A DNA stretch of 64,000 nt, taken from a virus. Its lineage: Duplodnaviria > Heunggongvirae > Uroviricota > Caudoviricetes. Both the position numbers and the translations under genes were made by a program. Under the pieces are notes generated by a model. The model ran no database searches, was not told where the DNA came from, and saw only the letters and a program-made list of their open reading frames with translations. Positions 7,711-47,997 of the stretch are shown piece after piece. Position 1 is the first letter of the stretch. The number at the start of each line of letters is the position of its first letter. The stretch is from positions 9,605 to 73,604 of IMG/VR virus record IMGVR_UViG_3300045988_166199. One strand, written 5' to 3'.

Positions 7711-9029
7711 AAAAGTTGATCGCACTTAAGCATAAGCTGGACGAAATGAAAGCTATGGGAACCAATGCAAAAAAAGAGGCATTGGCCAACATGGATGACT
7801 TTGAACAAAGCATGGTTTCATTGATGCTCAACCCTTTCATCCGTTTTGGGGTAAAGAAATACAAAGTGGCAGAGCCGCTTAGTGAGTCCGTCCCAAGTGA
7901 CGAAAAAGCCATTGATGTACTGAATAAGCTGGCCTCTCGCGAGCTGACGGGGAACGCAGCAATAGCTGCTGTTGAGTCTATCGTGGCGTCAATGTGCGCC
8001 GATGGGCAGGACGTCTTCCGTCGTTTCCTCTTAAAAGATCCGAAAGCTGGCGTTGGGATTAGCCTATGCAACAAGGTTTTTGAAAATCCCATTCCGAAAT
8101 TCGAGGTGCAGCTGGCGTCACCGTATAAAGAAAAAGGCGACAAATACCCCTTCAAGCCAAACCCTAAAGCAAAATGGCCGATGATTGGCAGCCTTAAGCT
8201 CGATGGTTTGCGAGTAATTTGCGAGGTTATTGTTGACGAAGAAGAGGTTAACTTCCTTTCTCGTACTGGTAATCCAATCACGTCTCTCGATCACCTAAAG
8301 CCAGCCATGCTCGAATTAGGCAAACTTTCAGGCCACAAACACATCTTCTTCGATGGTGAAGGCACAGCCGGTTCATTTAACCAGTCCGTATCTGCATTGC
8401 GCAAAAAGAACGTGCAGGCAATTGGCGCTATTTATCATGTTTTCGACTTCTTCCTACCGGAATGGCGAGCACAGGCTAAATCCAAAGAGTATGCAAAGAC
8501 AGGTATGAAGCTGAAAGAGCGCCTGGCTATGCTCGTGGCGTTGTTCAAAAACGATCGCAGTGAAGGCTACGCACAAGACATTCACCTGCATCCGTTCTAC
8601 ATCATCCATAGCCACGAAGACTTCATCGAACGCTTCATGAAACGCCTGGACGATAACGAAGAAGGGGAGATGGGCAAAGATCCGAACTCTGTTTACGAGT
8701 TTAAACGTACCCGCAGCTGGTGGAAGTTAAAAGACGAAGATTCAGAAGATGGTGAAATTATCGATTTTGAGCCGGGCGACCCGGACTCTGGTTTTGCCAA
8801 CACGCTTGGGAAAATTGTTATTCGTCTTGAAAACGGCGTCATCGTTCGTGCGAGCGGCATTAAGCATAAATATCTGGACGAGATCTGGAACAACAAAGAG
8901 AAGTACCGTGGTCGTATTGTCGAGGTTCATTGTCACGAGAAAACACCTGATGGCAGCTTACGCCACCCACGACTGAAATGGCCGCGTTGCTTACGCGATA
9001 CCGAAGATCGAATCGGAGATAAAGAATGA
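7707..9029 (+). CDS. ATP-dependent DNA ligase
   Basis: Motif I KLDGLR (KxDGxR adenylation lysine), motif V-like SWWKLKDE; T4 ligase-like. Confidence 0.8.
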   Translation: MKKLIALKHKLDEMKAMGTNAKKEALANMDDFEQSMVSLMLNPFIRFGVKKYKVAEPLSESVPSDEKAIDVLNKLASRELTGNAAIAAVESIVASMCADGQDVFRRFLLKDPKAGVGISLCNKVFENPIPKFEVQLASPYKEKGDKYPFKPNPKAKWPMIGSLKLDGLRVICEVIVDEEEVNFLSRTGNPITSLDHLKPAMLELGKLSGHKHIFFDGEGTAGSFNQSVSALRKKNVQAIGAIYHVFDFFLPEWRAQAKSKEYAKTGMKLKERLAMLVALFKNDRSEGYAQDIHLHPFYIIHSHEDFIERFMKRLDDNEEGEMGKDPNSVYEFKRTRSWWKLKDEDSEDGEIIDFEPGDPDSGFANTLGKIVIRLENGVIVRASGIKHKYLDEIWNNKEKYRGRIVEVHCHEKTPDGSLRHPRLKWPRCLRDTEDRIGDKE

Positions 9030-9241
9030 TCGTATTAAGTAAACGGGAGAAAGAAACGCTTCATGAAATAAGTAAGTGGCCGGAGTTCCCTGAGTACTGG
9101 AAGCCTAAAACGCGAGCTAAGTTAGAGCGTTTAGGGTTGGTTGCAAACGTTTCTGAAACGTGGCGCTCGGCCAACTACCAGTTAACTGATAAAGGGAAAT
9201 TATTGCTACAGCAATTAGTAGAATCAGGAGCCTTTAAATGA
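9026..9241 (+). CDS. hypothetical protein (71 aa)
   Basis: ORF overlapping ligase stop. Confidence 0.4.
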   Translation: MIVLSKREKETLHEISKWPEFPEYWKPKTRAKLERLGLVANVSETWRSANYQLTDKGKLLLQQLVESGAFK

Positions 9242-9388
9242 TTCCATACATCTCATTGGCTTTTATGGCTGGCTTCCTTATCGGCTTCGGCATCTGTCAT
9301 GATTTGATTAAGCAGGAACTTAAAACCAAAACACTGTGCATCGGAAAGCGCGTGTATCGAGTAGTTCATGAAACAAAGGTGAAAAAAT
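9239..9388 (+). CDS. small membrane protein (about 49 aa, below ORF-track cutoff)
   Basis: ATGATTCCATACATC... hydrophobic ORF MIPYISLAFMAGFLIGFGICHDL; its first 24 nt are repeated at 10250 and partly at 15045. Confidence 0.35.
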
Positions 9389-9677
9389 GAGCAAGTTAAC
9401 TTCTTGGGAATGGTGGTTGGTCACCTATTTCTTAGCGGCCGGAGTCGCATTCGCCTTTTACGTAGGTCAGTTAGTCGTAAAACTGTTGCTGATTAAATTT
9501 GCTAGTCATAAACGTATCGATGATGGTCTGTGGCGTCTTGGCACCCTGGTGGAAACTCGCTACGGGCAACTTAAGGAGAACGAAACCATTACTATCCAAG
9601 CGAAACAATTCACTGCCACCATCACAAGAACACCTAGTCGTAGAGTGGCCTTGATCAAAAAAGTCACAACCGAATAA
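9387..9677 (+). CDS. putative membrane protein (96 aa)
   Basis: N-terminal hydrophobic helix WWLVTYFLAAGVAFAFYVG. Confidence 0.45.
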   Translation: MSKLTSWEWWLVTYFLAAGVAFAFYVGQLVVKLLLIKFASHKRIDDGLWRLGTLVETRYGQLKENETITIQAKQFTATITRTPSRRVALIKKVTTE

Positions 9678-10454
9678 AAATACAATAATAAGTATTTACT
9701 TACCTATCTTTTATGTATAAGATGACTTTGTTTTCGTTGAGACGCGACTGTTTGAACTTAAATACAAGTGCAAACGAAGAAGTCTATCTGGCAGTAGCCT
9801 AATAAGCCAAACACCAGCGAGGTCAGTTTCCAGCCTCGTTACCGAAATGGGACACACTGAGCGAGTGTGATTGCAGAACGCAGGAGGGAACATGAGAGTT
9901 CCCTCCGATGAAGTAACAGAATGGGCGGTCAGTATATTTTCAACTCATATACGACTCCCGGATTCTTAGCCAATGACCGCCCATCCTGTTACGTCATTTT
10001 GTTCAATTATGTCGTTTATACTGGGTTAAAAAGCGGCGACGTAGCCCGGCTGGTATGGTTAGCCAGCACACAACGTTGAGGCCATTACATTTTTATCAAT
10101 TCTAAGGTTCTATTCACAGAGATACCGGCGAGCGTTGATATGTAACATGTTGGGCAAACATTCAATCGGAGTAGTGGCCTCAACGTTGTGAAGACAGGAT
10201 TGTTGTATAGGTTTAACCACTGTTGCCATTAGTGCCTGTTTTCACAACAAATGATTCCATACATCACATTGTATAAATTACAAAGTAGGTGCTGTCCTCA
10301 GAAACATCATCTACTTAAAGATTTTGCCTTCTATTGAGCGAAGTCGAAAACGTCTGGCACTAACGGAAAGTGCCAGTAGCGGTGTGTTTCCTGGCAGAAA
10401 CTAACACCGCCGCGATTGGCACTGTTGAGTAATAAATACTGGCAGTGCTGAATT

Positions 10455-10529
10455 GATGGTGTAGCTCAGCGGTAGAGCAGTTGGCTGTTAACCAACTGGT
10501 CGGTGGTTCGAATCCACCCACCATCGCCA
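10455..10529 (+). tRNA. tRNA-Asn (anticodon GTT)
   Basis: Cloverleaf: acceptor gatggtg/caccatc, anticodon loop ctGTTaa, T-loop ggttcgaatcc, 3' CCA; sequence differs from host asn tRNAs. Confidence 0.8.
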
Positions 10530-10534
10530 ATTTA

Positions 10535-10621
10535 GGGGAGTTAGTCCGTAGAGGTAGCGGGACAGACTGTAAATCTACTGTCATTGCGACTCGGGTGGTT
10601 CGACTCCATCACTCCCCACCA
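10535..10621 (+). tRNA. tRNA-Tyr (anticodon GTA)
   Basis: Acceptor ggggagt/actcccc, anticodon loop ctGTAaa, long variable arm, ggttcgactcc T-loop, CCA. Confidence 0.8.
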
Positions 10622-10625
10622 AATT

Positions 10626-10701
10626 GCCGGTTTAGCTCAGTTGGTAGAGCGCCTGCCTTGTAAGCAGGATGTCAGCGGTTCGAGTCCGTTAACCGGCACC
10701 A
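10626..10701 (+). tRNA. tRNA-Thr (anticodon TGT)
   Basis: Acceptor gccggtt/aaccggc, D-arm tagctcagttggtagagc, anticodon loop ctTGTaa, T-loop ggttcgagtcc, CCA. Confidence 0.75.
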
Positions 10702-10925
10702 ATACAACGATAAGATCATTACGGTTAATCGTCGTTCATGTGCACAATGACTGGTCGAAAGGTAGTGATCTTACCGTTGTGGTGGATTCGCAGACTGATG
10801 CGATAGCTTTCTTGGATGTTAGGGAAATGCGGCCGCAAATCTTCCCTTTCGCGAGCGGTGATCGTCCGTAGTCCTAATTGGCTGCACCGTATGCCGGAGA
10901 TTCAGTACCGGCCACCACAACGGCC

Positions 10926-11012
10926 GGAGAGTAGGGAGCATGGTGCTCAAGCGGTCTTGAAAATCGTCCCATTGTGCAAACGATGATGGTTCGATTCCAT
11001 TACTCTCCGCCA
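10926..11012 (+). tRNA. tRNA-like gene with long variable arm (possibly tRNA-Ser, anticodon TGA; atypical D-arm)
   Basis: Acceptor ggagagt/actctcc, T-loop ggttcgattcc, CCA end; anticodon stem weak and D-loop short, so isotype uncertain. Confidence 0.5.
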
Positions 11013-11167
11013 GACACAGCGTTGAGCGGTTTGGCCTTTTAATCAACTCGATTAAGACTCCGCTAACATAAACCAGACCGCTCAACGCTGTGATTGACAA
11101 TTACGGCAGACGTTCTTAACCATAGCTTGCTAACATCCTAGCAACACTTTTTTTCAGCGCAATATTC

Positions 11168-11190
11168 AAAGGGGCTTCGGCCCCTTTTCT
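11168..11190. terminator. hairpin terminator (bidirectional)
   Basis: aaaggggc ttcg gccccttttct. Confidence 0.5.
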
Positions 11191-12402
11191 TCAAAAAAGT
11201 TTTATAAATTCATAATTCTGGTCAATTAAGGATTCAATACACACCATGCAAAAATCTACATCGTTAAAATCAGGTGTGTAATATTCATCCTCATAACATT
11301 CATTTAGACCTTCAATCAATTTTTCTTTAAAAACTCCCCACGTTTCAATATGAACCATTTCCATATAAGGCGCATGTGTATGTACTTGCAATACATCCCA
11401 GGTGTCTATAACCTCGATCCGCGGCTTGCAATTAATTTTTTCTAAATATGCCCTCCCAGAATTGTAAATTTTCGACATTGATGCCCCAAAACCTGATGGT
11501 TGGTAATGAGTGTAAATGTCATAAATTTTTTGTCCTATTCTAGGGAGTTGAGAAGCATTGGATATTTGTGGCGAATGAAAGTATCGCTCTATGGAAGAAA
11601 ACGCAGAAACATTAACTAGAGTAATCGTATATGGTGCTAAAGTTCTCTCGTTCAAATTTCTACATAAAATAGCAAACCCATGGCTATTAGTCTTTTCACC
11701 GTCTGAGGACATTTTTGCCATGCTGGCTTTAATAACATTCAATTTCGAATGTAAACGAGAAGTGGAAGTCGGTTGATTATACATTTCATCATCATACAAA
11801 CATATATGAAACCCGCCAAGATGACGAAATGAGAACTTGAGTGCTTCTTCCGCAATAACTAATTTATTAATATCTAAAGGAGTAAGTGATACGTTACCTT
11901 GTAAATCATAGCAAGGTTCTAAACATAGAAAGTTTTTCTTCTGCCACACGATCATATTAAAAATAAAGTGTCTAACCAAAGGTGGCCAGTCAGGTGATAT
12001 AAGTACATTGGTAATATCTCCATCAGACAAGTATGACAAGTAACTTTTTAGTTCCGCAGCATATGCCACTAGCTCAGTTCCAGCTTCCCTTGTTGGTGTT
12101 GAAAAATTTTTTAACTCAATAAGAACTAAGGATTCATTCTCTGTTGAATAAGCAACGACATCAGGTCTTAATATCTCAGATTTTGTTGCTGAGATATTCT
12201 CATCATCTGTCATTAAATGTAACAATGTTATGTTCTTTAAACAAAACTGATAACTCTCCTTAATTTTTTTCTCTTCGGGTCTTTTCGGATTAAATTCATT
12301 TAATTTATCAATATTGATGATTGAATTATATAATCCATCTTGATCAGATAATTTGTCAATTATCCAATTTTGCATTTCCTTTTCGCTTAAAAATATTGAC
12401 AC
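11191..12402 (-). CDS. hypothetical protein, downstream partner of Abi-like gene (403 aa; AbiGii-like size; possible PD..(D/E)xK-like motif)
   Basis: Co-directional, 26-bp spacing from upstream gene; AT-rich codon usage; segment ILRPDVVAYS...LVLIELK compatible with a nuclease-type D...ExK motif (inference only). Confidence 0.55.
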   Translation of the reverse strand: MSIFLSEKEMQNWIIDKLSDQDGLYNSIINIDKLNEFNPKRPEEKKIKESYQFCLKNITLLHLMTDDENISATKSEILRPDVVAYSTENESLVLIELKNFSTPTREAGTELVAYAAELKSYLSYLSDGDITNVLISPDWPPLVRHFIFNMIVWQKKNFLCLEPCYDLQGNVSLTPLDINKLVIAEEALKFSFRHLGGFHICLYDDEMYNQPTSTSRLHSKLNVIKASMAKMSSDGEKTNSHGFAILCRNLNERTLAPYTITLVNVSAFSSIERYFHSPQISNASQLPRIGQKIYDIYTHYQPSGFGASMSKIYNSGRAYLEKINCKPRIEVIDTWDVLQVHTHAPYMEMVHIETWGVFKEKLIEGLNECYEDEYYTPDFNDVDFCMVCIESLIDQNYEFIKLF

Positions 12403-12428
12403 TAATTAGGCTCCCGTTAAACCAAAAA

Positions 12429-13295
12429 TTAAAAATCTTGCTTTACTTTATCCATGGTCAGAATTTTGCTAATAATTGAAGATTCAAATCCATCTAAACC
12501 TGAGAGAAAGTTAATTAGCTTTTGGATATGTTGTTCTTTAGGTATAAGTATATATTTTATATCATTGAACTCAAAATCAATGCCAAACTTTGAAAATTTT
12601 GAGCTAATTTTTGCTTTGTCATCAGAAGTGATAACACGCTCCAAACTCAGACTAGGCCATAAATCACCAATAAAAGGAGCTGGCACATAACGCCACTCTT
12701 TCTCGTCTGCATATATATAATTCTCTATTGTTTTATTATCTTTTCGCTCTAGCTTGCCTCTGTAATTTTTCATATAACGCAGTAAATTATATAGATCAGA
12801 ATATTCTGCTTTCAATTTCTCAAACTCTATTCTGTTTTTGGTATCTAAATTTCCTCTAGCCTTCCAAAGCGGCACCAACTTATTTTTAATAAGTCGAATT
12901 CTGGCATTGTATTTAGAAAATATTTCACTACTCTTATTCATATATAGAACTGGGTGTAGACCTTTCTTTTCCGCCCAAGACTTAGTTAGCCCAAGACCGA
13001 ATTCTCCATATTTTCCGCTATGATCTCTGATTTGTGATAGTTTTATGTCACAAAACGATACCATTGGTACTGCAAACCTCCTGCGTCCCCCGACTCCTCT
13101 TATTTCCTCGCGAGCAAGAAATGGTTTAAAATATTTCTCAGCCAATATGCTATAGAAAGCATCTTCGTTTTTTGTAAAATGAAACAACGTGGTTGGATGA
13201 AGACTATAAACAGATTCAACATTCGCATCAGGATTTTCAAGGATAGTCATTTTACACCTTGTGGAAAGCCAGTTTAGTTCTGTAAATAGTATCAC
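12429..13295 (-). CDS. abortive-infection-like protein (AbiGi-like, 288 aa)
   Basis: Motifs LFHFT, VPMVSFCDIKLSQ, YGEFGLGL.K.WAEKKGL.PVLY resemble AbiGi-type proteins as recalled from memory; AT-rich; first gene of a two-gene operon. Confidence 0.55.
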   Translation of the reverse strand: MILFTELNWLSTRCKMTILENPDANVESVYSLHPTTLFHFTKNEDAFYSILAEKYFKPFLAREEIRGVGGRRRFAVPMVSFCDIKLSQIRDHSGKYGEFGLGLTKSWAEKKGLHPVLYMNKSSEIFSKYNARIRLIKNKLVPLWKARGNLDTKNRIEFEKLKAEYSDLYNLLRYMKNYRGKLERKDNKTIENYIYADEKEWRYVPAPFIGDLWPSLSLERVITSDDKAKISSKFSKFGIDFEFNDIKYILIPKEQHIQKLINFLSGLDGFESSIISKILTMDKVKQDF

Positions 13296-13399
13296 ACGAC
13301 AGGCGGCTATTCTTCTATCAATAAATGATAGGTAAGCACTTACTTTTTACGCACGTTAACTGTATAGTTCTTTCGGATACTCACTTGAAAGGACTCAAT

Positions 13400-13543
13400 A
13401 TGGGAAATAAATGTAAACATGCGCGTCGCGCATCTCGTCAGGTGCAGAAGTCAAATCCATACATTCACGAGCACTACCACCTCAGCTCTTTCACTAACCG
13501 CTACACGTTCCCCAGCGAAGCGCATAACGAGGCAAAGCAATGA
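13400..13543 (+). CDS. small basic protein (about 47 aa; ORF track 13325..13543)
   Basis: Internal ATG start MGNKCKHARRASRQ; stop overlaps glutaredoxin start (ATGA). Confidence 0.3.
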   Translation: MGNKCKHARRASRQVQKSNPYIHEHYHLSSFTNRYTFPSEAHNEAKQ

Positions 13544-13785
13544 CGATCACTATCTATGGACGAGATAACTGCTCATACTGCAAACGTGCGGTCGAGCTGG
13601 CGAAGCAGCTTCACGGTCACGGTTTTGGCGATTACGAATACATCGATATTGTGTCTGCTGGGATAGACAAAGAGAAATTGAGCGCCCTGGTTGGCAAGCC
13701 GGTGGAGACCATACCGCAGGTGTTCGTAAATGGCGAATCTATCGGTGGCTATACGGAATTCGCCGCTCTGGTGAGTACATTATAA
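13540..13785 (+). CDS. glutaredoxin-like protein (NrdC/NrdH-type)
   Basis: CxxC active site CSYC near N-terminus, 81 aa thioredoxin-fold pattern, C-terminal GG.YTEF; followed by terminator. Confidence 0.8.
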   Translation: MTITIYGRDNCSYCKRAVELAKQLHGHGFGDYEYIDIVSAGIDKEKLSALVGKPVETIPQVFVNGESIGGYTEFAALVSTL

Positions 13786-13788
13786 TTA

Positions 13789-13811
13789 AGAGCCGCTTAG
13801 GCGGCTTTTTA
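13789..13811 (+). terminator. rho-independent terminator
   Basis: agccgc ttag gcggc ttttt. Confidence 0.7.
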
Positions 13812-13977
13812 CATGAAAGTGTGCGCTCAAATCAACTATATCTATGAAAAGGACAGTTATAAATATTAAAAATATCTAAAATCCCTTCCGATATATGAAT
13901 TATCAGATTAAAATTTCACACAATGTGCTTTTAATGAGTTATTATTTCACCTTTTGTTGCCTTTACAGTTTAGGTTT

Positions 13978-14967
13978 TCACGTCACGATTATTCTTTTAC
14001 CTTGTCTATCTTTAATCTCAGTCACATACCCTTTCAGTGCCTCTTCATTTAGTAACAGAGCCTCTAATTTCATATCACCAATGATAATGGAGTATATAAG
14101 GTTATAATATGCACATAGTTTTTCATGTATTTCAGGAGAAATGTTTCTACCACGGTGATAATCCATTCCATAAACCGAATCAATTCCTGAGTTCACTATC
14201 TTCATCTGAATTTCAAAAAAATCATTATTTAAATCAAAGTAAACAATAGGGACCTCATATCTTCTGCTAGAAAAATCCATTGGTGATAGATAGTTAAGAC
14301 CATTTGCACTGACCTTCACTTGAATTCCAGCCTGTATACCTGAATTCGACGTTGGAGCAGAAATAAGTAATTGAGAAAGTGGGTCTCGTTTGTCTATCCA
14401 CACAATGTCCCGTTGAGTATCATTAGGTTGATATTTAGTAGGATAGTTAATTTTCGTATAGTTGAGTCCAGTCCCAACAGCTTTATAATTAGACAAACTA
14501 TCTGTGAAAGGGGTATATCTCTTTGCTAATAATGCCCAGTTTTCATTTTGTTTCGCGTTTTTTTCACATTCTTCAACAATGAGTGCTTCCGCAATTTTAC
14601 CTAATATTCTCATAGTTGTTTTATGGGGATCTAGTTCGATAATGATGTTTGACTTGATCACTCCTTCTTCATTAATACCAACAAGACCTAACTCTTTATC
14701 CATGAGTTCAAATAAATTTTCCCCATGCTCAATTGCTAACAAAGCTGAAGGTCGTGATAATAATGAAGAGTTATTCCAATCTCCGAGGGAGATATCCAGA
14801 CCTAAATCAATACCTTTAGTCGTCACTACTAGCTGAGGTTTGGGAGGCGTAGCCCCTAATAACTCAGATAGCGTGTTGACTTCCGGTGTCTCTTTTATCA
14901 TTTTTCTTATCCTGTTGCAGCGATCGCATGACAATACTATAAAACCAGCCATTTTCAAGTAAATCAA
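13978..14967 (-). CDS. hypothetical protein (329 aa ORF; likely start at internal Met MIKETPEV with AGGA RBS)
   Basis: Long AT-rich ORF between glutaredoxin and integrase; no confident domain. Confidence 0.55.
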   Translation of the reverse strand: MIYLKMAGFIVLSCDRCNRIRKMIKETPEVNTLSELLGATPPKPQLVVTTKGIDLGLDISLGDWNNSSLLSRPSALLAIEHGENLFELMDKELGLVGINEEGVIKSNIIIELDPHKTTMRILGKIAEALIVEECEKNAKQNENWALLAKRYTPFTDSLSNYKAVGTGLNYTKINYPTKYQPNDTQRDIVWIDKRDPLSQLLISAPTSNSGIQAGIQVKVSANGLNYLSPMDFSSRRYEVPIVYFDLNNDFFEIQMKIVNSGIDSVYGMDYHRGRNISPEIHEKLCAYYNLIYSIIIGDMKLEALLLNEEALKGYVTEIKDRQGKRIIVT

Positions 14968-15044
14968 TTACCTTTTAGGTGATGAAGATAAAAGTGAAGC
15001 CAACCCCTCCGTTCGAAAAGATAGATTCAAAAAAATCGCCCCCC

Positions 15045-15077
15045 AATGATTCCATACCTACTATGTATGGAATCATT
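15045..15077. promoter_or_regulatory. perfect 12-bp inverted repeat with 9-bp spacer upstream of integrase (candidate recombinase core site or operator)
   Basis: aatgattccata cctactatg tatggaatcatt; left arm also occurs as direct repeats at 9237 and 10250. Confidence 0.5.
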
Positions 15078-15175
15078 ACTGAAAATGAGTTACTTTTACT
15101 CTTGATCCTATAAGAATCTATGCCTAATATACTGTTTACTTATACAGTGCATCGGCGTAACTCGGTGATTGTCAT

Positions 15176-16279
15176 ATGAAAAATAGCTTTGACAGAGCAC
15201 GCGCTGCGGAGAACACCTCAAAAGAGGCGATTGAGTATCTCGAAAGAGCATCTCAAATGCAGGCCGTTATGATCTCCCAGGTCAGCAATGACATGAGATT
15301 CTCGGACGCATTCATGTTATTCACTCGCTTATCTCTGCTGATAACAAGACGTCGGCCAGAGATCGCTGTTCATTGTATTTTGATACATGTTTTGCCGCAC
15401 ATTGCCGATGTAAAAGTAAGTGATATTAATAGGTTCATGGTGAACCAACTGGTCAACCCACTAATACTGGATGGCAAAATTGTTATGGGTCGCCGCGTTT
15501 TCTCTCTGATGAAGCAGTTCCTCAGCTGGTGCGCCTTCCAGGGGATGATCGACGTGTCACCGTTAAACGATATGTCACTTAACAAAGTTGCCGGTGGCGC
15601 AAAGCCCACACCTCGCGAGCGGAAGCTGACCGACGCAGAGGTATGGGTGTTCTGGAATATATGGGACTACTTCAATGTGTGTGCTGGTACAAAATGGGCG
15701 GCCAGGCTATGTCTTGTATCCGCAAGACGACCTGACGAAGTACTGCGGGCTAAAAAAAGTGAGTTCAATCTTAAGCGTGGGGTTTGGAATCAAGGCAAGA
15801 GGAACAAATCTGCCCGTGAGCATTCTCTGCCTTTAAGCTCATTAATGCGCACATGTATTGAAGAGTTGTTCGAATATGGTAAAGACAGCCAGTGGCTCGT
15901 GCCTTCGAATAAAAAAATCGGGAAAGACCTTCCTATGTCTAAAGTGGCAATAGCCCAGGCATTACGTCGTATTCTGGAACGACCAGAACTGATGGAGCTT
16001 GAGCCATTTACACCCCGAGATTTGCGCCGTACTGCGCGTAGTTACTTCCCAGCATTAGGCATAAGCCAGGAGGTATCACGTAAAATCATGAACCACAGTC
16101 TTGAGGGGATAGATCGGGTCTACGACCGGCACGATTATATGGACGAGATGCGAGACGCCTTAGAAAGTTTCTCGACGTACATCGCATCAATCGTAGAGCA
16201 ACCGGATTTAGACGAAATTGACCACAAATTTAAGGGAGATCGTCTATCAACAGAGCTTATTCGTGTAAATTTTTCATAG
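15176..16279 (+). CDS. tyrosine-type site-specific integrase
   Basis: C-terminal catalytic motifs: R in LVSARRPDE, RDLRRTARS box II, NHS...RVYDRHDY with tyrosine nucleophile; lacks a recognisable P4-type N-terminal arm-binding domain. Confidence 0.8.
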   Translation: MKNSFDRARAAENTSKEAIEYLERASQMQAVMISQVSNDMRFSDAFMLFTRLSLLITRRRPEIAVHCILIHVLPHIADVKVSDINRFMVNQLVNPLILDGKIVMGRRVFSLMKQFLSWCAFQGMIDVSPLNDMSLNKVAGGAKPTPRERKLTDAEVWVFWNIWDYFNVCAGTKWAARLCLVSARRPDEVLRAKKSEFNLKRGVWNQGKRNKSAREHSLPLSSLMRTCIEELFEYGKDSQWLVPSNKKIGKDLPMSKVAIAQALRRILERPELMELEPFTPRDLRRTARSYFPALGISQEVSRKIMNHSLEGIDRVYDRHDYMDEMRDALESFSTYIASIVEQPDLDEIDHKFKGDRLSTELIRVNFS

Positions 16280-16666
16280 AGACTTTATGGCCTCAACAAC
16301 CTTTTGTGATGCGCCTTTCTCTTTACCGAATCGCTCGTTATATGCAGCAAGAACCTGTTTTTCGTCCTCGTTAAGAGGAGCAGTGCCTTCTTTGTATAAA
16401 AATGCTGCGAGTTCGGGTTGGCGTTCTTCCAGCACCATCATCATAAGACGACTTGGCTCAATACCCAGTGCCAGCGCCAGCGGACGAACCTTATCGATAG
16501 GCAAAGGAATTTTGCCGCTTTTAATTAAAGAAAGGTTGTTGGCGTTTTTATACCCAATTGTTTTGGCTATCTGGGCCTGGCTCATAGGTGAGGATTCAAT
16601 CAACCCTGCGATAAAAGCAGCGTAGCGACTTTCTATAAATTCAATCTTGTTATCAGACATGGTCAC
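16274..16666 (-). CDS. XRE-family helix-turn-helix transcriptional regulator
   Basis: HTH motif SQAQIAKTIGYKNANNLSLIKSGK; convergent with and overlapping integrase 3' end. Confidence 0.7.
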   Translation of the reverse strand: MTMSDNKIEFIESRYAAFIAGLIESSPMSQAQIAKTIGYKNANNLSLIKSGKIPLPIDKVRPLALALGIEPSRLMMMVLEERQPELAAFLYKEGTAPLNEDEKQVLAAYNERFGKEKGASQKVVEAIKSL

Positions 16667-16911
16667 AACCTTTGCGCGTTCAATTCTCTCTGGTAAGTGC
16701 TTACCGATATTACATCAAAGGTTAGGGTTGTAAAGCTATTATCATTTTTTTCGATAGGCACTTAAAAGACCGGTTAAAGGCCATTGCACGGAGAAAAATT
16801 AGCCCAAAATAGGTAAGAAAAGTAACTTGCATATGATATGAATGTATTCAGTATTGATACAAATTTTAGTAGTATTCCTTACCATAGTATAAGTTAGAAT
16901 GGATTGATTGA

Positions 16912-17124
16912 ATGAACACCACTATTTCCAGCCTAATCGCTCTTGAGATCGGACACGTACAAAAATTAGCTGTTGAGTGTGTAACAGACATCCTTACCGA
17001 TCTACCGAATGAGCAGATTCAGGTTGGTGTGAATGACACCACTGGCTTTATATTCGAACTTAACAACAAACGCTTCACGCTTCTCAATACCGGCTCCGGG
17101 TCTTTAGCCGTCAGAATCTGTTAA
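16912..17124 (+). CDS. hypothetical small protein (70 aa)
   Basis: ORF in intergenic region, followed by hairpin ctgcgcgaa...ttcgcgcag. Confidence 0.3.
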   Translation: MNTTISSLIALEIGHVQKLAVECVTDILTDLPNEQIQVGVNDTTGFIFELNNKRFTLLNTGSGSLAVRIC

Positions 17125-17222
17125 CCCCTCTTCTCCCTGCGCGAATGGCTTAGTTCCCTGTTCGCGCAGTGCTACATTAAACACACTAGTAAATAATTTG
17201 TTTTCATAACAAAGGATTAGCC

Positions 17223-19331
17223 ATGTCTAAAAAACGTTCCATCAAAGAGGTTCAGGACTTCCGTGACAGTGTAAAACGAGTAGTCGCTCTCCTTTCAGGT
17301 AAAAACATCCCTGTTGCAGAACGAGGGGACGACGCTTATGTACGCTATAACGATGATGGAGAGCCAATTCTCGTAAACATCCCATCAATCCCGGATAACG
17401 CAACACCGGCATTGATGAATGCTGTGCGCGGATTTCTCGATCATGAGGTTGCTCACATTTTGTTTACCGATATTCGTGTGTCCAACAAAATGAGAGAAAA
17501 AGGACGCGTTCCTTCCTGGTCGCTATGGAATGCCTTAGAAGACGTGTTCATCGAGCGAAAAATGGGTCAGGTCTTTAACGGAACAAGACGTAATCTGATG
17601 GCAACTCAGCGCCTTATAATCGAAAAAGTCTTTAAACCAAAGGCTTCAGAGGCTATTGCTTATTGTGGCAAAGATCAGCGCGCGCTTTTTCTAAACTTCT
17701 TTCTCTGTCCGGTTGTAAGAGCCTGGGATGGCCAAGCACCGTTCGTAGATTTCATGGATGAATACTGGCCTGTCATTGAGAAACCAATTTCATTATTAAA
17801 AAAACATGGTATCGATGTGGCCGCGCGTAACATGTCCTGCACCGAGGATTGTGTAAAGGTGGCTGCGACCATAGCTAAGATCCTCAAAGACACTGAAAGT
17901 GAAAGCAAAGGTAAGGAGTCAGCTCCGGGAAAAACTCCCGATCCTTCAGACGCTGACCAAGCGGATTCCTCTGGAGAAAGTAATGAAGACAATGAAGATC
18001 ACAAGACACATGAGATGCTAGATAACCACATATCTATAGATGATGAGTCACAAGGTAAGTACATACATGATAATAACGATAGTGATGATTCAGATAATTC
18101 TGAATCATCAGAAACAATATTCGATGATACAAAAAATGATAAAGAGGTATTAGATTCTGATACTTCCAATAGCGCGACGACAGAAGCAACTACCTCGGAT
18201 CACGAAAAAAGAAAAACGGCAGAAGACGGCTCTTCAGACATTCCCACTCCGTCCAAAATGAGTCTGGAAGAGGCTTTAGAGGAGCTTGATAGCATGGAAG
18301 ATGAAGTCGGAGGCATGACAGAAGATGCACTATCCGAAACGATTAAAAGCGAGTTAACAGAAAGCTCGAAAAGCGAATACAGGCCATACAATCGCTCATA
18401 CGACTTCATCGGTTCGATTGATCAGGCAGAAGCCCATATCAAACGGCTTATTAAAACATTCTCCGATATTGATTTAGGTGGATATCCAATCAGCCGTTAT
18501 CGCATCGTTCCTGAAGGCAACCAACTCTTCGACAAATATATTGAAAAGCATCTTTCGTCAGGTGTTTCGTCGACGCTGGCAAAAGACCTGGAGCGTGCAA
18601 TTGCAAGCAGAAACAGAGTTCAGTTTATACCGGGCCAGCGTCGGGGGCGCATTCATGGTTCTAGTATCTACAGATTAGCAATGAATGATGATCGCGTGTT
18701 TCGTAAAAAAGAAGAATCTAAGGCCGTTAACGCCTGTGTTCAACAAGTGATTGATTTATCAGGTTCAATGAGCGGCGAAACGATTAAACTGGCTCTTGCA
18801 AGTGCATATACCATCGCCGATGCGCTTGATCGAATAAATGTTCCCAACATTATCACCGGCTTCACAACATTTGGTAGTCATATGGCAGCAGGAGAGCTTA
18901 AGGCAATCAAGTATGAGTTCTCTCGCTTTGAATCTTTAATGCTACCTATCATCAAAAATTGGAATGAAAAGGCCAATTCTCGCGAAGTTCGCTCACGTAT
19001 GGGGTGCGTAGGCTACACATTCCCACTTCTTAATAACGTGGATGGTGAAAGCATAGCCAGCCTTGCATCGTTATTTTCTGGTCGCATGGAGGACAAGAAG
19101 ATCATGCTTGTTCTAAGCGATGGCGCGCCGTGGGCTGTTGGGAGAGGTTTTGACGCTCATTTGCGTTCGGTTGCGAAGCAAATTGAAACGCAGACTGACA
19201 TTGATTTGATGGCAATTGGCATCATGACTGACGCACCGGAGAGATTTTACGCAAACCATGCCCTGGTAACGAGCGTTGATAGTCTTGGTTCATCTGTAGT
19301 TACTGAACTATCTCGTATCATTTTGAAGTGA
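17223..19331 (+). CDS. CobT-like protein with C-terminal von Willebrand factor A domain
   Basis: C-terminal MIDAS motif VIDLSGSMSG; long acidic D/E/S-rich linker; N-terminal HExxH (DHEVAHILF); followed by AAA+ partner. Confidence 0.7.
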   Translation: MSKKRSIKEVQDFRDSVKRVVALLSGKNIPVAERGDDAYVRYNDDGEPILVNIPSIPDNATPALMNAVRGFLDHEVAHILFTDIRVSNKMREKGRVPSWSLWNALEDVFIERKMGQVFNGTRRNLMATQRLIIEKVFKPKASEAIAYCGKDQRALFLNFFLCPVVRAWDGQAPFVDFMDEYWPVIEKPISLLKKHGIDVAARNMSCTEDCVKVAATIAKILKDTESESKGKESAPGKTPDPSDADQADSSGESNEDNEDHKTHEMLDNHISIDDESQGKYIHDNNDSDDSDNSESSETIFDDTKNDKEVLDSDTSNSATTEATTSDHEKRKTAEDGSSDIPTPSKMSLEEALEELDSMEDEVGGMTEDALSETIKSELTESSKSEYRPYNRSYDFIGSIDQAEAHIKRLIKTFSDIDLGGYPISRYRIVPEGNQLFDKYIEKHLSSGVSSTLAKDLERAIASRNRVQFIPGQRRGRIHGSSIYRLAMNDDRVFRKKEESKAVNACVQQVIDLSGSMSGETIKLALASAYTIADALDRINVPNIITGFTTFGSHMAAGELKAIKYEFSRFESLMLPIIKNWNEKANSREVRSRMGCVGYTFPLLNNVDGESIASLASLFSGRMEDKKIMLVLSDGAPWAVGRGFDAHLRSVAKQIETQTDIDLMAIGIMTDAPERFYANHALVTSVDSLGSSVVTELSRIILK

Positions 19332-19426
19332 TTAGAATAGCCTTAATGATAAGTAATCACTTACGATATTTGATGGTATATTTATATAAGAAGTTGAAAG
19401 CTCATTAGAAAACAAAGGAAAAACGC

Positions 19427-20662
19427 ATGACTACTACTGCACTGCAAAATGAAAAAAATCCTTCTGATTACCTTGTTTGCAAGTGGTGCGGAAAATCATT
19501 TCACTATTTTAAGTCCCATGTAGCCAATGGTAATTGCGAGGGCATTCCTGAGTCAGTAAAAGATGCCGATCCTGACACCGTACTGAAAATGTACACAACG
19601 CAGTTTCCAGATGAGCCAACGCTATCGAAAAAGGCACTTGATGCAATTCAAGCTAAACGTGCCGAGCAAATAAGCGAAATGGCCAAATCATCTGGCGTGA
19701 CCAATAGCCCAGGCTATACAGGCACAGTTGAGTACAAGACAGATCTGGTCGCAGCTCACGAACTGCTAAATGTAACGGTGAAAGAACTCGGAACAAAACG
19801 TGGGACGCCGCTCATGGTTAGCGTCAACGTCAATACGCCGTTTCCAGAGTTCGTTCCAGAAGTGAAGAAGGGATACGTATATGGCGACTTCGAACTGATC
19901 AAAGACATTTTCATGATGCTTGAACTTGGCATACCAGGCTATTTGTGGGGTCATGCAGGAACAGGCAAATCTTCATTGCCTACACAACTATGTGCTTTGC
20001 TCAATCGTCCGTTAATCCGTGCCCAACATACAGCATCAATGGAAGAGGCTCATGTTACGGGACAAATTCTGGCGCGTGATGGCTCTACGTATTTCGAGCC
20101 TGGCTTGCTTGCGCTCGCAATGAAGCATGGCTGGGTTTACCTCGCGGATGAATACGACTTTGCGTTTCCACAGATTCTTGGCGTGTATCAGCCAGTGCTG
20201 GAAGGTGAAGCGTTGGTCATCAAAGAGGCGACTCAAGAATGGCGTCGCATTACTCCGCATGAACGGTTTGCTTTCATTGGCACTGGCAACACGAACGGAT
20301 CTGGTGATGAAACCGGCTTGTACCAGGGTACAAACATCCAGAACGCCGCTAACTTTTCGCGTTTTGGCATCGTTTCGAATGTGAAATACATGAGCAAAGA
20401 GGCAGAGATCAACATGTTGATAAATGCTGGCATCGTGGATGAATACGCTGAAAAGATGGTTAAGTTTGCCGGTATCGTTCGCGATGGATACGAAGAACAC
20501 CTGATCAGTCAGCCGATTGGCCCTCGTGAACTTTTGTTGTCGGCCAAGATTGGAATGATGCGAGGCGACTTTGTGACAGGTATTGAGCGTTCTTTCATTA
20601 ACAAACTCCCTTCAGCTTCTGCGCAAGCGGCACGTGAAGTTGTTCAAAAAATATTTGGTTAA
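19427..20662 (+). CDS. AAA+ ATPase, CobS/MoxR-like
   Basis: Walker A GHAGTGKSS, Walker B VYLADEYD; N-terminal Cys-rich CKWCGK...H...C segment. Confidence 0.75.
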   Translation: MTTTALQNEKNPSDYLVCKWCGKSFHYFKSHVANGNCEGIPESVKDADPDTVLKMYTTQFPDEPTLSKKALDAIQAKRAEQISEMAKSSGVTNSPGYTGTVEYKTDLVAAHELLNVTVKELGTKRGTPLMVSVNVNTPFPEFVPEVKKGYVYGDFELIKDIFMMLELGIPGYLWGHAGTGKSSLPTQLCALLNRPLIRAQHTASMEEAHVTGQILARDGSTYFEPGLLALAMKHGWVYLADEYDFAFPQILGVYQPVLEGEALVIKEATQEWRRITPHERFAFIGTGNTNGSGDETGLYQGTNIQNAANFSRFGIVSNVKYMSKEAEINMLINAGIVDEYAEKMVKFAGIVRDGYEEHLISQPIGPRELLLSAKIGMMRGDFVTGIERSFINKLPSASAQAAREVVQKIFG

Positions 20663-20664
20663 TC

Positions 20665-20868
20665 GTGCGTAAAGGATGTTTCGGCTCTCTTATCGCTGCT
20701 TCTGAAACTGGCAAGGCTTGTCTGGTGTGTCCAGACAAGCCCGATTGTCACCAATCAGCAAAAGAAGTTGCGATTTCGATGTATGGGAAATTCGTAGGCT
20801 TCCCCAATGACAAAATCAAAAAAACCAGAAAGGTAAAAACACATGAAGGCTCTGATGGTTCGAACTGA
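20665..20868 (+). CDS. small Cys-rich hypothetical protein (67 aa)
   Basis: ORF between AAA+ gene and polymerase; CxxC-like cysteines; overlaps polymerase start. Confidence 0.3.
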   Translation: MRKGCFGSLIAASETGKACLVCPDKPDCHQSAKEVAISMYGKFVGFPNDKIKKTRKVKTHEGSDGSN

Positions 20869-23800
20869 CTTCTCTCTTGGGGAGTCGGCTCTAAAAGCAG
20901 AAAACGCGGTGAAGATTGCCAGAGAAGCTGGCTACACCGCTGTAATTTCGGCAGATAGCATGAATATTGCGAGTGTTATTCCACTACAACGTGCCGCTGG
21001 TGACGACATGGCGGTTATTTGTGGTGTGAAACTAAACATTGTTGATGATCCCACATACGAGCACCGGGCTAAACTTGCTAAAGAGTCTATGGGATGTATG
21101 GAATCATTAGAGCGTGGGCGGAACTACTCCTTTACCGCTCTAATTAAAAATGAGCAGGGATATCGAGACATCTGCGAACTAATGACGGCGGCCAACACAC
21201 GAGAACAGTTCTACTTTGTACCGCGTCTCTCGCTCGAACAGTTGGTTTCTACATATGCCAAAGGCAACATCATCCTGCTCACTGCCGACATCGGTAGCGT
21301 GTACCAACGCAACGATTTTGCAAAAATCATAAGCTCACTGATTACAGCGGGTGGAAAAAACAACTTCTATAGTGTGGTTTATCCGCACCCTACCCCATTC
21401 TACGACCAGATTAACGTCCGGGCGATGAAAGTCGCCAGCGCACTGAAAATAGAGCCAGTAGCGTTCTATCCCGCTTATTACGAATCGATCGACGATGCAG
21501 ACATTAAAGACATTGCGCACATGGTTACGAACAACATCAAAATCGACCAGCCGCATCGTCTGCGTATCCCCCACCAGCGAGATAACGCCGTCAATGGTCG
21601 CCGCCATCTCCTTGAGGCGCTGAAAGCCTTCTCCGTTCGCATGGATGTGCCGGTAACAGCCGCAATGGCCTCAACAACGCAGGATACCATTATCGATGCC
21701 TGCACATGGCGCTGGCATGAATTGCCACCAGCACTGCCAAAGATGGCAGACGACGAGCCTGCAACGCTGATGAAACTGGCCGTTGCTGGGCTGCGTAAAC
21801 GTCTTACCACAAAAGAGTTTGGCTACACACCACCGGCTTCTGAGAACAGGGTTTATGTTGAGCGACTTAAGTACGAAATGGACACGCTTACTCGCCTGGG
21901 ATTTTGTGGTTACTTCCTGATGGTACGCGATCTGATGAATCACAGCCGTGAAACTGGCATTCCTGTCGGGCCTGGTCGTGGTTCCTCCGCTGGCTCTTTG
22001 GTGGCATGGTGCATAGGCATAACCAACGTCGACCCTATCCGTCACGGTCTTCTGTTTGAACGTTTCATCAACCCTGAGCGTCTCGACTTGCCAGATGCGG
22101 ACTTGGACTTCAGCCAGGCACGTCGCCATGAGGTGATCGAGTATCTGAATGAACGCTACGGCGAAGATTACGTTGCAGGCATTCCGAACTTCACCTACCT
22201 GGGCGCGGCCTCTGCACTACGTGACACCGCTCGTATTTATGGTGTGGAGTCCGCAGATATGGCGGTATCAAAAGAACTGAAGAACGTCGAGGATGATAGC
22301 CTTCCATTGGAAGAGCTGCGCGAACAACTGGCAAGCCTCGACAAATACGCGACAAAATATCCTGATGCATTCAATGCAGCCTGCAAGTTACAAAGCCTTA
22401 TGCGTGGCTATGGTAGACATGCGGCAGGGATGATCGTAGCAGGTGTTCCTCTGACAGAACGAACACCGGTTGAACGACGTGGTGACGCGCGTTGTATCGC
22501 ATTTGACAAGCGTTACTGCGAGGCTATGGGCCTAATTAAGCTGGACGTACTTGGCCTGGCGACTCTCGATTTGCTCGATAGTGCAAAACGCTACATTAAA
22601 GAGAACACAGGTGAGGATATCAATCTTGATGCCATTTCTCTTGAAGATCGCAAGGTGCTGGATGGTTTTGCTGCTGGGTACACTCAAGGTGTTTTCCAGC
22701 TTGAATCAGGCCCAATGCGCAAGCTGCTTAAAGATTTAGGTGGTGGAATTGAGCCAATGAGCTTTAAAACGGTCGTTGCTACGACTGCGCTCTTCCGGCC
22801 GGGGCCAATTCAGTCAGGCATGTTGGATGATTATGTTTCTGTCGCCAAAGGCTTTATGACGCCGGAATCATTACACCCCGTTCTTGATGAACTTACCGCA
22901 GAAACAAATGGCGTGATTCTCTATCAGGAACAGACGATGAACGCGACTCGATTGCTTGCCGGCTTCACAATGGCTGAAGCTGACGGCGTTCGTAAAGCGA
23001 TCGGCAAAAAAGACATGGAGAAAATGAAGAGCATGGGTGAGAAGTTCATCGTTCAGGCTCAAGCTGGCTGGATCGACGTTGAGCTGGAAGATGGCACTAC
23101 ACAGCGCATTCACCGTGCGGAACATTTTAAATGCGAAGACGGAACTCTGAAAACTGTCGAAGAGGCACTTGAGTTCGGTGCAAAACTACCTATAAACGCA
23201 GTACGCGTTACAGCGTCACATCCAGGGCTATCAGAGATGAAAGCGAAGGAGATCTGGACCGCATTCGAAAAGAATGGTGCCTACCAGTTCAACAAATCAC
23301 ACTCTGTTGCTTACTCCTTAATCAGTTATCAATCTATGTGGTTGAAAACTCATTATCCCGCAGAGTTTTTCGCTGCTGCTCTCACTATTCTTGGCGAAGA
23401 TAAACACCAGGGGCTGGTTAAAGATGCGCTGACCTATGGTATTCGCGTATTGCCACCAGACGTTAACATGTCATCTAACCGAATCGAGATCCGCACGCTT
23501 GAAGATGGCAGCCAGGTGCTGTATGCGCCCTTCTCTGCTGTGAAGGGGTGTTCTGAGAATGGCTGCCAGGCCATCATGAGAGCGCGAGAAAAGGTTGGCG
23601 GCAAATTCGAGTCACTTGCGCAATTCGAAGAAGCTGTCGAGAAACGTGCCTGTAATAGTCGAGTGCGCGAATCGCTGCAAAAAGTAGGGGCGTTTGCATC
23701 CATCGAGCCAGGTAGTCTGCCAGCAACTGATCCAGAGCGCCTCCGCGACCAGGCTGAATTGATGGGAAACCTTGTCATAGATGCAGTTAAAGCCTCACGT

Positions 23801-28265: not shown

Positions 28266-29339
28266 ATGGCAAAAGGAAAATCCGCACTGGCACTTGCTCT
28301 GAAAAAGAAAATCGGTAGCAACGACGAAATTCAGAAAGTAACTCATTGGATTGATACAGGCTTTCCACCGTTAAACAAAGCTATTTCTGGTCGTTACGAT
28401 GGCGGCTTCCCATGTGGTCGTATCGTCGAAGTATTCGGCCCTCCAAGTGCAGGGAAAACGTTCCTTGCAACAGCAGCAATGATCTCCGCACAGAAACAAG
28501 ATGGTCTGGCGGTATTCCTCGATCATGAAAACAGTTTTGACGTTGGCCTGGCTGTAGCCAATGGCCTGAACGCAGATGAGGATGACGGTCAGTGGGTATA
28601 CAAGCAGCCAGATACCTTCGAAGACTCTGTAGAGTTGATCGGCACAATACTTAAATTGGTTCGTGATGAAGAGCTTATCCCCGAATCAGCACCTATCTGT
28701 ATCGTGGCTGACTCTCTTGCGTCTATGGTTCCGAACTCCAAAGCCGAGAAGTTCGAAAAGATGGCTGAAGGCACTGCCAAAGACAAAGATCAGCTAAACA
28801 TGAACGACAATACGGCACTGGCTCGTGCGACGAGTGCGAACTTCCCTACTCTGGCTTTGTGGGCACGCAAATACAACGCCTGCATCATCTTCTTGAATCA
28901 GGTTCGCACAAAAATCGGTGTAATGTTTGGCGACCCTACTACGTCGCCAGGTGGAGATTCACCGAAGTTCTACGCTTCTGTACGTATCCGTCTTGGTGCA
29001 TCGGTGATGAAGGATGGTAAAGAGAAGATCGGCCAGGACGTAGGCGCAGAATGCATCAAAAACAAAGTTGCACCACCGTATGGCAAATGCACCTGGAAAT
29101 TCTACTTCGATCCTACTCGTGGCCTCGACGTTATCGAATCGCTCGTCGAGTACATGCTGGAAGAAGGATACCTGCCAAAGAACGCCAGCGGGCGAGTTGA
29201 AATTGGTGACAAGAAATACACCAAATCGCAGATCGTTGAGATGTATCGGGAGAAGCCACTGGCTGAAATCATTGCGGCTTTGCAGGCAATCGACGACCGA
29301 AGAGCAAAAGACAACCCCACCGAGTCAGTAGAAGAGTAA
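28266..29339 (+). CDS. RecA/UvsX-like recombinase
   Basis: Walker A GPPSAGKTF; RecA-fold pattern (ICIVADSLASMVP, IFLNQVR). Confidence 0.85.
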   Translation: MAKGKSALALALKKKIGSNDEIQKVTHWIDTGFPPLNKAISGRYDGGFPCGRIVEVFGPPSAGKTFLATAAMISAQKQDGLAVFLDHENSFDVGLAVANGLNADEDDGQWVYKQPDTFEDSVELIGTILKLVRDEELIPESAPICIVADSLASMVPNSKAEKFEKMAEGTAKDKDQLNMNDNTALARATSANFPTLALWARKYNACIIFLNQVRTKIGVMFGDPTTSPGGDSPKFYASVRIRLGASVMKDGKEKIGQDVGAECIKNKVAPPYGKCTWKFYFDPTRGLDVIESLVEYMLEEGYLPKNASGRVEIGDKKYTKSQIVEMYREKPLAEIIAALQAIDDRRAKDNPTESVEE

Positions 29340-45375: not shown

Positions 45376-45789
45376 ATGGCAAGAGGTATGTATGTCTTAT
45401 GCGAAATTGAAGGTGTGCTGGCAAATGCCAGCCATCGTAAATCAGTATCTGACGCGGATGCAGGCCAGCTCATTGCCGGTGATGAACTCATTTTCCCCAC
45501 CAGCCGTATGTTGCGTGGTTTTGCTCGCTCAGGGGCTGAAGTGGTGCTTATCAGTAGCCGCTCTGAAACTCTTGAAGCGCCAACTAAACGATGGCTGAAA
45601 GATTTTGGCGTTGATTATGACTGGCTTCATCTCGTACCAAATGGCACCAGTTATGAGAAGCATATTAAGCGCACATTAGCGGAGCATAAAGGCGATCTGC
45701 TTATCGCTGCGCTGGTGCACGATCCTCGACTCCGTGCCGCTTTAGCCGACTCTCACCATCGACCGGTCATCTATGAGGTGAGCAAATGA
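45376..45789 (+). CDS. hypothetical protein (137 aa), translationally coupled to thyA and DHFR genes
   Basis: ATG 2 bp after thyA stop; stop overlaps DHFR start. Confidence 0.45.
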   Translation: MARGMYVLCEIEGVLANASHRKSVSDADAGQLIAGDELIFPTSRMLRGFARSGAEVVLISSRSETLEAPTKRWLKDFGVDYDWLHLVPNGTSYEKHIKRTLAEHKGDLLIAALVHDPRLRAALADSHHRPVIYEVSK

Positions 45790-47957: not shown

Positions 47958-47997
47958 AAAAGCCTACTTTAAAAAGTTTAAAGTAGGCTTTCTTTTA
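47958..47997 (+). terminator. rho-independent terminator
   Basis: aaagcctactttaaa aag tttaaagtaggcttt cttttaaa. Confidence 0.75.

Follow-up and report, generated by a model that had tools for sequence, protein, structure and literature searches.

The analysed window is a stretch of 64,000 nucleotides of viral DNA and is part of a ~112-kb SSU5-like phage-plasmid of E. coli, belonging to the SSU5/pHCM2/pECOH89 group. Positions 14000-20000 were 100% identical to the E. coli plasmid pEc2-51408 (112,587 bp), and ~250 further E. coli plasmids of ~110 kb matched the window. The element carries phage genes (tail, capsid, terminase) as well as plasmid and replication genes encoding a RepB initiator, ParB-family proteins, dnaE, helicase, and primase. 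The following features lie at and around the locus:

10455-11012: tRNA cluster Asn-Tyr-Thr-Ser
13978..14967, minus strand (RefSeq start 14901): cargo gene, a 329-aa open reading frame with no family match
15022..15027, plus strand: TAGATT, a -10-like hexamer; over 63 loci, information content has a maximum here, 24 positions before the arm (-24)
15045..15077, no strand assigned: putative core recombination site of 13-7-13 layout, located by inverted-repeat search and comparison of 63 loci
15176..16279, plus strand: tyrosine recombinase gene, 367 aa, assigned by Pfam, NCBIfam, alignment, AlphaFold2 model, and Foldseek
15782..15794, minus strand: degenerate copy of the arm with 3 mismatches, in the recombinase gene over the codons for VWNQG
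16274..16666, minus strand (RefSeq start 16660, 128 aa): convergent XRE-type HTH gene

The open reading frame 15176..16279 is the longest possible reading, since an in-frame stop is located just upstream. Its product belongs to the tyrosine recombinase superfamily: Pfam Phage_integrase (PF00589) matched residues 172-320 (E=2.9e-10, 40.6 bits at a cut-off of 27.1). The C-terminal catalytic domain described in an earlier note on this DNA was thereby recovered, with five of the six catalytic positions canonical. The protein is organized as follows:

residues ~7-33: N-terminal helices (AlphaFold2 model)
residues ~42-133 (42-121 in the model): helical core-binding domain
residues ~150-340: catalytic domain
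R185, K211, R281 (replacing the usual His-II), R284, H307, and Y316: catalytic residues

Residues R185, K211, R284, H307, and Y316 were invariant or nearly so across 93 sequences, down to 43% identity. The His-II position is occupied by Arg (R281) in at least 90% of the family and by His in the P4-type outgroup, an exchange which may alter or slow catalysis. Recombinase activity is plausible despite R281, because Lys is found there in type IB topoisomerases.

The same note had stated that the N-terminal ~120 aa do not resemble a P4-type arm-binding domain. The domain is indeed absent: its family (PF13356/DUF4102) gave no Pfam match in the recombinase even at E<=10, the identical scan found it in the outgroup proteins P0114 and P0117 with 48-56 bits as positive controls, and the NCBIfam P4-like model PRK09692 aligned through its positions 137-393 only. 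The AlphaFold2 model, obtained with 93 sequences (pLDDT 89, pTM 0.82), was all-helical up to residue 190 and contained no N-terminal beta-sheet. The extent of ~120 aa had to be given up; residues ~42-133 constitute an ordinary core-binding domain, and only the first ~40-45 residues are unassigned. Within the core-binding domain, Phage_int_M gave a weak, sub-threshold Pfam match at residues 71-133. The PF22022 central domain scored 22.8-24.4 bits, below the cut-off of 27, and most family members carry a precomputed match to it. Foldseek placed lambda Int at rank 1 (E=3e-7), followed by Tn1549 Int, XerH, and IntI; Cre chains appeared at rank 38 or lower (E=0.018-0.06). A PDB profile search by sequence returned XerH as its best, marginal match (E=0.013) and neither Cre nor a close relative.

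A search of 5.8 billion proteins identified 152 relatives; the family details given here rest on the best 120 of them. Among these 120, PF13356 was present in 0 of the proteins P0001-P0113, most of which are ~340-380 aa long and many of which are encoded on ~100-120-kb contigs. Their hosts include Escherichia, Klebsiella, Salmonella, Enterobacter, Citrobacter, and Yersinia, furthermore Xenorhabdus, Photorhabdus, Rahnella, Pantoea, Erwinia, and others. The recombinase is a member of a conserved ~365-aa family of Enterobacterales phage-plasmids and megaplasmids. The nearest outgroup within the best 120 of the 152 relatives consisted of P4-type integrases of 400-460 aa, which are at most 34% identical and possess PF13356, and in the alignment the family sequences begin where the arm domain of the outgroup ends. 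These data, together with lambda Int as best fold match, suggest derivation from P4/lambda-type integrases by shortening of the N-terminus, which corresponds to the remodelled integrase proposed as one of two alternatives in the earlier note. Truncation or inactivation was not found, and length and catalytic residues are kept across ~90 homologues. By the family alignment and the conserved catalytic residues, the gene represents a stable, selected architecture and not a truncated pseudogene.

The recombinase gene is preceded by a perfect inverted repeat at 15045-15077, AATGATTCCATAC CTACTAT GTATGGAATCATT, which lies 98 bp upstream of the start codon. Its 7-bp spacer CTACTAT is asymmetric and AT-rich, and the full palindrome occurs once in the 112,587-bp plasmid. 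Perfect inverted repeats of at least 11 bp with a spacer of 3-12 nt were found at 5 loci in the window as compared to ~0.2 per shuffle. For comparison, 63 loci of relatives were taken, one genome per species, 62 of them with a full-length gene. The palindrome was located 47-254 bp upstream of the gene in all 63 full-length loci (the window and 62 relatives), and recombinase and palindrome co-occurred in 63/64 loci, the exception being a gene fragment. The spacer was 7 bp long in all 63 loci, with the consensus nTAWTAn, and was found in either orientation relative to the recombinase gene. Arms of class A, (A)ATGATTCCATAC, accompany recombinases 57-100% identical to that of the window, and arms of class B, TGACTCCAGAC, accompany recombinases 45-53% identical to it; a few sites have hybrid arms. 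The classes differ at two arm positions, which are changed in both arms, and each of these core changes could go back to one event in evolution. The outer arm positions co-vary repeatedly among the loci. Paired arm cells amounted to 92.4% versus 86.3% in shuffles, of which 0/500 reached the observed value, and slid registers gave 25-40%.

Accessory arm repeats were absent within 60 bp on either side of the site in the 63 loci. The sole conserved flank elements in these 60 bp are two hexamers, TAGATT and a second -10-like TAnnnT located 16-21 bp to the right; with low confidence, TAGATT may belong to a promoter reading through the site. With its 13-7-13 layout, asymmetric spacer, and lack of accessory arms, the site falls into the class of simple recombination sites, which have two inverted arms of 11-14 bp around an asymmetric spacer of 6-8 bp. 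On plasmids of Pantoea, Erwinia, Rahnella, and Chimaeribacter, site and gene are together surrounded by metabolic and H-NS genes. Judged by these sequence contexts, site and gene form a self-contained module recurring in unrelated backbones, namely phage-plasmids and Pantoea/Rahnella/Erwinia plasmids. Co-occurrence, the 7-bp spacer, and the symmetric arm changes speak for the other alternative of the earlier note, a simplified loxP-like recombinase that would use the palindrome at 15045. Both alternatives are thus supported, and they describe one and the same thing.

The distribution of gene and site was analyzed in 5,426 complete E. coli genomes. The recombinase gene matched at 263 places in 252 plasmid records, all of them plasmid-borne, and at 0 places on a chromosome. 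The 33-bp site was found in 252 genomes, the same number as for the gene, at one location per record and always on a plasmid; a chromosomal attB-like copy was not detected in the 5,426 genomes. Relatives of the recombinase occur in 1,081 PLSDB plasmids, 989 of which are typed as non-mobilizable. No second site-specific recombinase is present among the annotated genes of the 112.6-kb plasmid. The recombinase is 99.2% identical to its counterpart in Cyrano/pLF82. Cyrano, a phage-plasmid inducible by ciprofloxacin, is present at ~5.5 copies per cell (PMC9928086); with such a copy number in the 99%-identical relative, plasmid multimers are to be expected. In phage SSU5, which was described as virulent (PMC5427195), recombinase, HTH gene, and the small open reading frame beside them are all missing. 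Hence, the recombinase would be dispensable for lytic growth.

The arm-less recombinase and its lox-like site probably constitute a Cre/loxP-like simple-site system for the resolution of plasmid multimers. We infer that the protein binds DNA and is catalytically active, and that its biological role is multimer resolution. A recombinase dimer would occupy both 13-bp arms of the palindrome beside the gene and exchange strands across the 7-bp spacer; like Cre at loxP, it would need no accessory arm sites. Multimers would thereby be resolved to monomers and partition would work. Resolution is proposed as the main role, because the phage-plasmid is extrachromosomal and multicopy and has one site in each monomer. 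Possibly, the recombinase has the additional role of circularizing terminally redundant phage DNA after infection. Since the arm domain is lost and a conserved 13-7-13 site adjoins the gene, plasmid upkeep is likelier than chromosomal integration. The site is not located opposite the plasmid replication origin. As accessory sites providing a topological filter are absent, resolution would be undirected, as for Cre. In principle, host XerCD could resolve the multimers instead.

Several known systems resemble the proposed one. Cre/loxP, and likewise Dre/rox, VCre/VloxP, and Vika/vox, consist of a single recombinase without an arm-binding domain; in loxP, too, a short asymmetric spacer separates two inverted arms of 13 bp, and the site lies beside its gene and is present once per replicon. 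Moreover, the host element of Cre/loxP, P1, is a phage-plasmid in which Cre serves multimer resolution and circularization (PMC7969092). However, the recombinase studied here is not a homologue of Cre, as Foldseek favours lambda Int and the PDB profile search lacked Cre; the spacer is 7 bp instead of 8 bp, Arg replaces His-II, and orphan half-sites are present. With P4-type bivalent integrases (PF13356 + PF22022 + PF00589), it has in common the catalytic domain, apparently the core-binding domain, and the motifs xDLRRT and NH...YDRHDY. In lambda/P4-type systems, the overlap region typically measures 7 bp. In contrast to the P4-type enzymes, the ~85-aa beta-sheet arm-binding domain is missing, neither an integrated state nor a tRNA attB is seen, and a simple full palindrome takes the place of core and arm sites.

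XerS/difSL and XerH/difH likewise combine one recombinase with a palindrome-like site beside its gene and dimer resolution of the replicon, the latter being proposed here; these systems are chromosomal and FtsK-dependent and have sites of the 11-6-11 type. ResD/rfsF of F and Rsd/crs of Salmonella virulence plasmids are plasmid-encoded tyrosine recombinases which resolve multimers of large low-copy plasmids. They probably differ from the present system in belonging to another sequence family and having unrelated sites. Arm-less tyrosine recombinases which recognize additional single-arm motifs are known from TnpI/IRS of Tn4430, with the accessory repeats DR1/DR2, and from Rci/sfx of IncI shufflons, with asymmetric sfx sites that have a 7-bp spacer; such single arms lie within ~100 bp there, whereas they are located 5-6 kb from the core site here. 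Apparently, the system is of a known kind, a simple-site tyrosine recombinase on a plasmid, which would have arisen from a different lineage when the arm domain was lost.

Apart from the palindrome, three orphan half-sites (ATGATTCCATACATC) occur at conserved positions 5-6 kb on either side of it, all facing the palindrome:

9237..9252, plus strand: orphan half-site 1, AATGATTCCATACATC (arm plus ATC), covering the start codon and first four codons of a 50-aa open reading frame (MIPYI...)
10250..10265, plus strand: orphan half-site 2, AATGATTCCATACATC, ~200 bp upstream of the tRNA cluster
21093..21108, minus strand: orphan half-site 3, AATGATTCCATACATC, in dnaE codons 84-89, a variable loop encoding 'GCMESL'

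The exact 13-mer arm is present in five copies in the window and also in the whole plasmid, two of which form the palindrome; by a rough estimate, ~0.002 matches would be expected by chance. The orphan copies begin at 9237 (+), 10250 (+), and 21096 (-), and a second arm is absent at all three. The same arrangement was found in relatives, which were chosen by recombinase similarity alone. Kluyvera and the Klebsiella phage pJN2-26 have two plus-strand half-sites on the left and two minus-strand half-sites on the right, one of the latter inside the recombinase gene; an exact 11-nt arm was found in Kluyvera, Yersinia, and Klebsiella relatives at the position matching 15782..15794. Yersinia pestis has just two right-hand half-sites within the 10 kb examined on either side. 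IMG/VR contigs carry the 15-mer at the same three positions despite visibly diverged flanks, a scan biased towards conservation because exact matches only were retrieved. In the recombinase-less phage SSU5, one of the three half-sites has one mismatch, which is too little to conclude on a relaxed constraint. Dispersed single arms are confined to one phage-plasmid lineage.

A pure resolution role leaves the conserved orphan half-sites unexplained. As a tentative and rather unlikely extension, monomers of the SSU5-type recombinase on the three or four half-sites might form a polar array with a second job. Such an array would control the lysogeny/replication region at the level of transcription or replication, or would direct recombination, resembling a Ter/dif-like or a regulator-plus-resolvase arrangement; to our knowledge, neither has been described for a tyrosine recombinase.

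Alternatively, the protein could act mainly as a DNA-binding regulator similar to MrpR, the recombinase-like repressor of SPbeta, with the palindrome and the half-sites as operators. Half-sites conserved at the beginning of a gene, ahead of the tRNA cluster, and in dnaE would suit operators, as would the promoter-like hexamers flanking the palindrome; furthermore, His-II is replaced by Arg, and MrpR and SroF were among the weaker Foldseek matches, at ranks 32 and 36. However, regulators of the MrpR type have lost Tyr, both Arg, Lys, and His-III, whereas the nucleophile Tyr and these other residues are retained here and invariant across the family. In addition, orphan half-sites were absent from the class-B phage-plasmids and megaplasmids examined, which possess the single full site only, and the 13-7-13 layout corresponds to a crossover site. 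Regulation as the main function is therefore unlikely; autoregulation and recombination are compatible with each other.

The half-sites resemble sfx in having one conserved arm without a second, and every one of them faces the palindrome. They could hence be asymmetric secondary sites, as in the Rci/sfx system, of a ~12-kb inversion or deletion switch, or the palindrome could serve in cargo capture, as the slot directly to its left is a variable cargo hot spot abutting the palindrome, with homology breakpoints recurring at 15022-15045. We consider this quite unlikely. In a spread sample of 811 matching records, the listed SSU5-like E. coli plasmids were collinear across 8500-22500 and neither inverted nor deleted arrangements between half-sites were seen, unlike the rearranged isoforms of Rci/sfx shufflons; inversion or deletion between half-sites was rejected on these grounds. 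The 7 nt adjoining the half-site arms differ from the palindrome spacer, and this mismatch would block strand exchange between half-site and palindrome. Inversion at half-site 3 would, moreover, break dnaE. Capture of cassettes by the recombinase is not supported: at the other, left border of the cargo slot a second site was not found, and some flank homology extends ~20 bp left of the palindrome arm.

A conventional phage integrase which occasionally inserts the phage-plasmid into a chromosomal attB is very unlikely. The gene is annotated 'integrase' in all records, a putative repressor gene accompanies it in the manner of lysogeny modules, and P4-type integrases are its closest sequence relatives. 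Against this stand the missing arm-binding domain, the lack of an excisionase-like gene among the annotated neighbours, the absence of chromosomal places (0/263) and attB-like copies in the E. coli genomes, a site that is an intact full palindrome beside the gene and not split into attL/attR, and the occurrence of the same module in megaplasmids among metabolic genes. That the palindrome has nothing to do with the recombinase, being an HTH operator, a terminator, or a leader RNA hairpin, is highly improbable: it does lie in a divergent promoter region, and arm covariation would suit a hairpin too, but the HTH gene was found at 8/63 loci and the palindrome at 62/63 (63/64 with the window), for which reason the palindrome is assigned to the recombinase and the HTH operator was rejected, no T-run follows the stem, the arm sequence itself is near-invariant within a class amid unrelated flanks, and partnerless single arms are conserved elsewhere.

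In the literature searched on integrase or recombinase function in the SSU5 group, only annotation-level mentions were found; a functional assay of the recombinase was not among them, and a search for the arm sequences returned unrelated primers only. The gene family was known only as a persistent 'tyrosine recombinase' of the SSU5 group (PMC7969092), and a recent paper states that phage-plasmids typically lack integrases (PMC12977533). A description of the site, the domain loss, or the half-sites was not found in this literature. Clinical E. coli, Klebsiella, Salmonella, and Yersinia commonly harbour SSU5-like phage-plasmids, and these elements carry resistance genes; their 'integrase' has been annotated but not explained. 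A defined 33-bp site and a plasmid-maintenance role would make it a testable stability determinant. The system may furthermore exemplify how a bivalent integrase that loses its arm domain is simplified to a lox-like system. For genome engineering, it may offer a candidate orthogonal recombinase/site pair that occurs naturally in two specificity classes, with ATGATTCCATAC and with TGACTCCAGAC arms. In addition, SSU5-type elements possess a new and conserved feature in the orphan half-sites.

Finally, the neighbouring genes were compared. The HTH gene overlaps the 3' end of the recombinase gene by 6 bp, as the earlier note had observed, and RefSeq annotates the identical overlap. Where the HTH gene accompanies the recombinase of relatives, the loci are exclusively those of phage-plasmids. 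In Cyrano, the HTH gene is annotated as 'putative repressor' and expressed 10x above background in lysogens (PMC9928086). The slot left of the palindrome contains the 329-aa open reading frame here, a 184-aa open reading frame in Cyrano, and a fimbrial operon or nothing elsewhere; expression of the Cyrano slot gene, CYRAN_43, was 723-fold above background in lysogens (PMC9928086).

At residue 281 of the recombinase (gene at 15176-16279), located in the HxxR box, arginine replaces histidine throughout the family (RDLRRT), whereas the outgroup of P4-type integrases has histidine there (HDLRRT).

Comparison of loci L007-L068 from relatives revealed that the 7-bp spacer of the palindrome reads TTAWTAG in about 44 loci and CTAWTAA, its exact reverse complement, in about 17. 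Spacer orientation differs even among close relatives (Kluyvera versus Buttiauxella); the short site therefore appears to have switched orientation repeatedly with respect to the gene. A single arm of the palindrome, followed by ATC, also recurs as an orphan half-site at three places in the window:

9237-9252, plus strand, orphan half-site AATGATTCCATACATC
10250-10265, plus strand, orphan half-site AATGATTCCATACATC
21093-21108, minus strand, orphan half-site AATGATTCCATACATC

All three are oriented toward the palindrome, and their positions are kept in the Kluyvera, Klebsiella, Yersinia and SSU5 relatives, though the flanks have diverged. Besides the palindrome, two perfect inverted repeats with short spacers stood out:

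47959-47991, 15-3-15 repeat directly past the gene ending at 47954
18083-18110, 12-4-12 repeat within a CobT-like gene

The 15-3-15 repeat is probably a terminator.

The window was compared with stretches L005, L006, L189, L190 and L193, which delimited a region of variable content left of the palindrome:

13786-15044, cargo slot with the glutaredoxin gene on one side and the palindrome on the other

In the window the slot contains a 329-aa ORF; in relatives it is occupied by a 184-aa ORF (CYRAN_43) or a PapB-chaperone-usher fimbrial operon, or it is empty. Expression of CYRAN_43 in LF82 is 723x background. Homology breakpoints recur at the palindrome end of the slot (15022-15045).

Salmonella phage SSU5 (L191/L192, NC_018843.1 33000-48000), which gave the group its name and was described as virulent (PMC5427195), has neither the recombinase nor the HTH "putative repressor"; the 70-aa ORF next to them and the greater part of the tRNA cluster are missing as well. 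The deletion may be the reason why SSU5 behaves as a lytic phage.

Several further genes were noted in the window:

11191-12402, minus strand, 403-aa ORF (phrog_30092) beside the AbiGi-family gene
12429-13295, minus strand, AbiGi-family gene (Pfam E=4.8e-25)
45786-46262, plus strand, trimethoprim-resistant DfrA51, as named by RefSeq
54191-60121, minus strand, type I restriction-modification system, complete with hsdR, hsdS and hsdM
62036-63136, minus strand, host-like apbC

The first two genes (11191-13295) likely constitute a two-gene abortive-infection system; the putative pair lies in the variable region adjoining the tRNA cluster. Furthermore, metG is located just outside the window.

A RecA gene was also found:

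28266-29339, RecA gene

At its place in the related plasmid pTLYA-2 (NZ_CP137164.1; L189 21108-21456) a LAGLIDADG homing endonuclease is annotated, which suggests that an intein or intron has inserted there in certain lineages.
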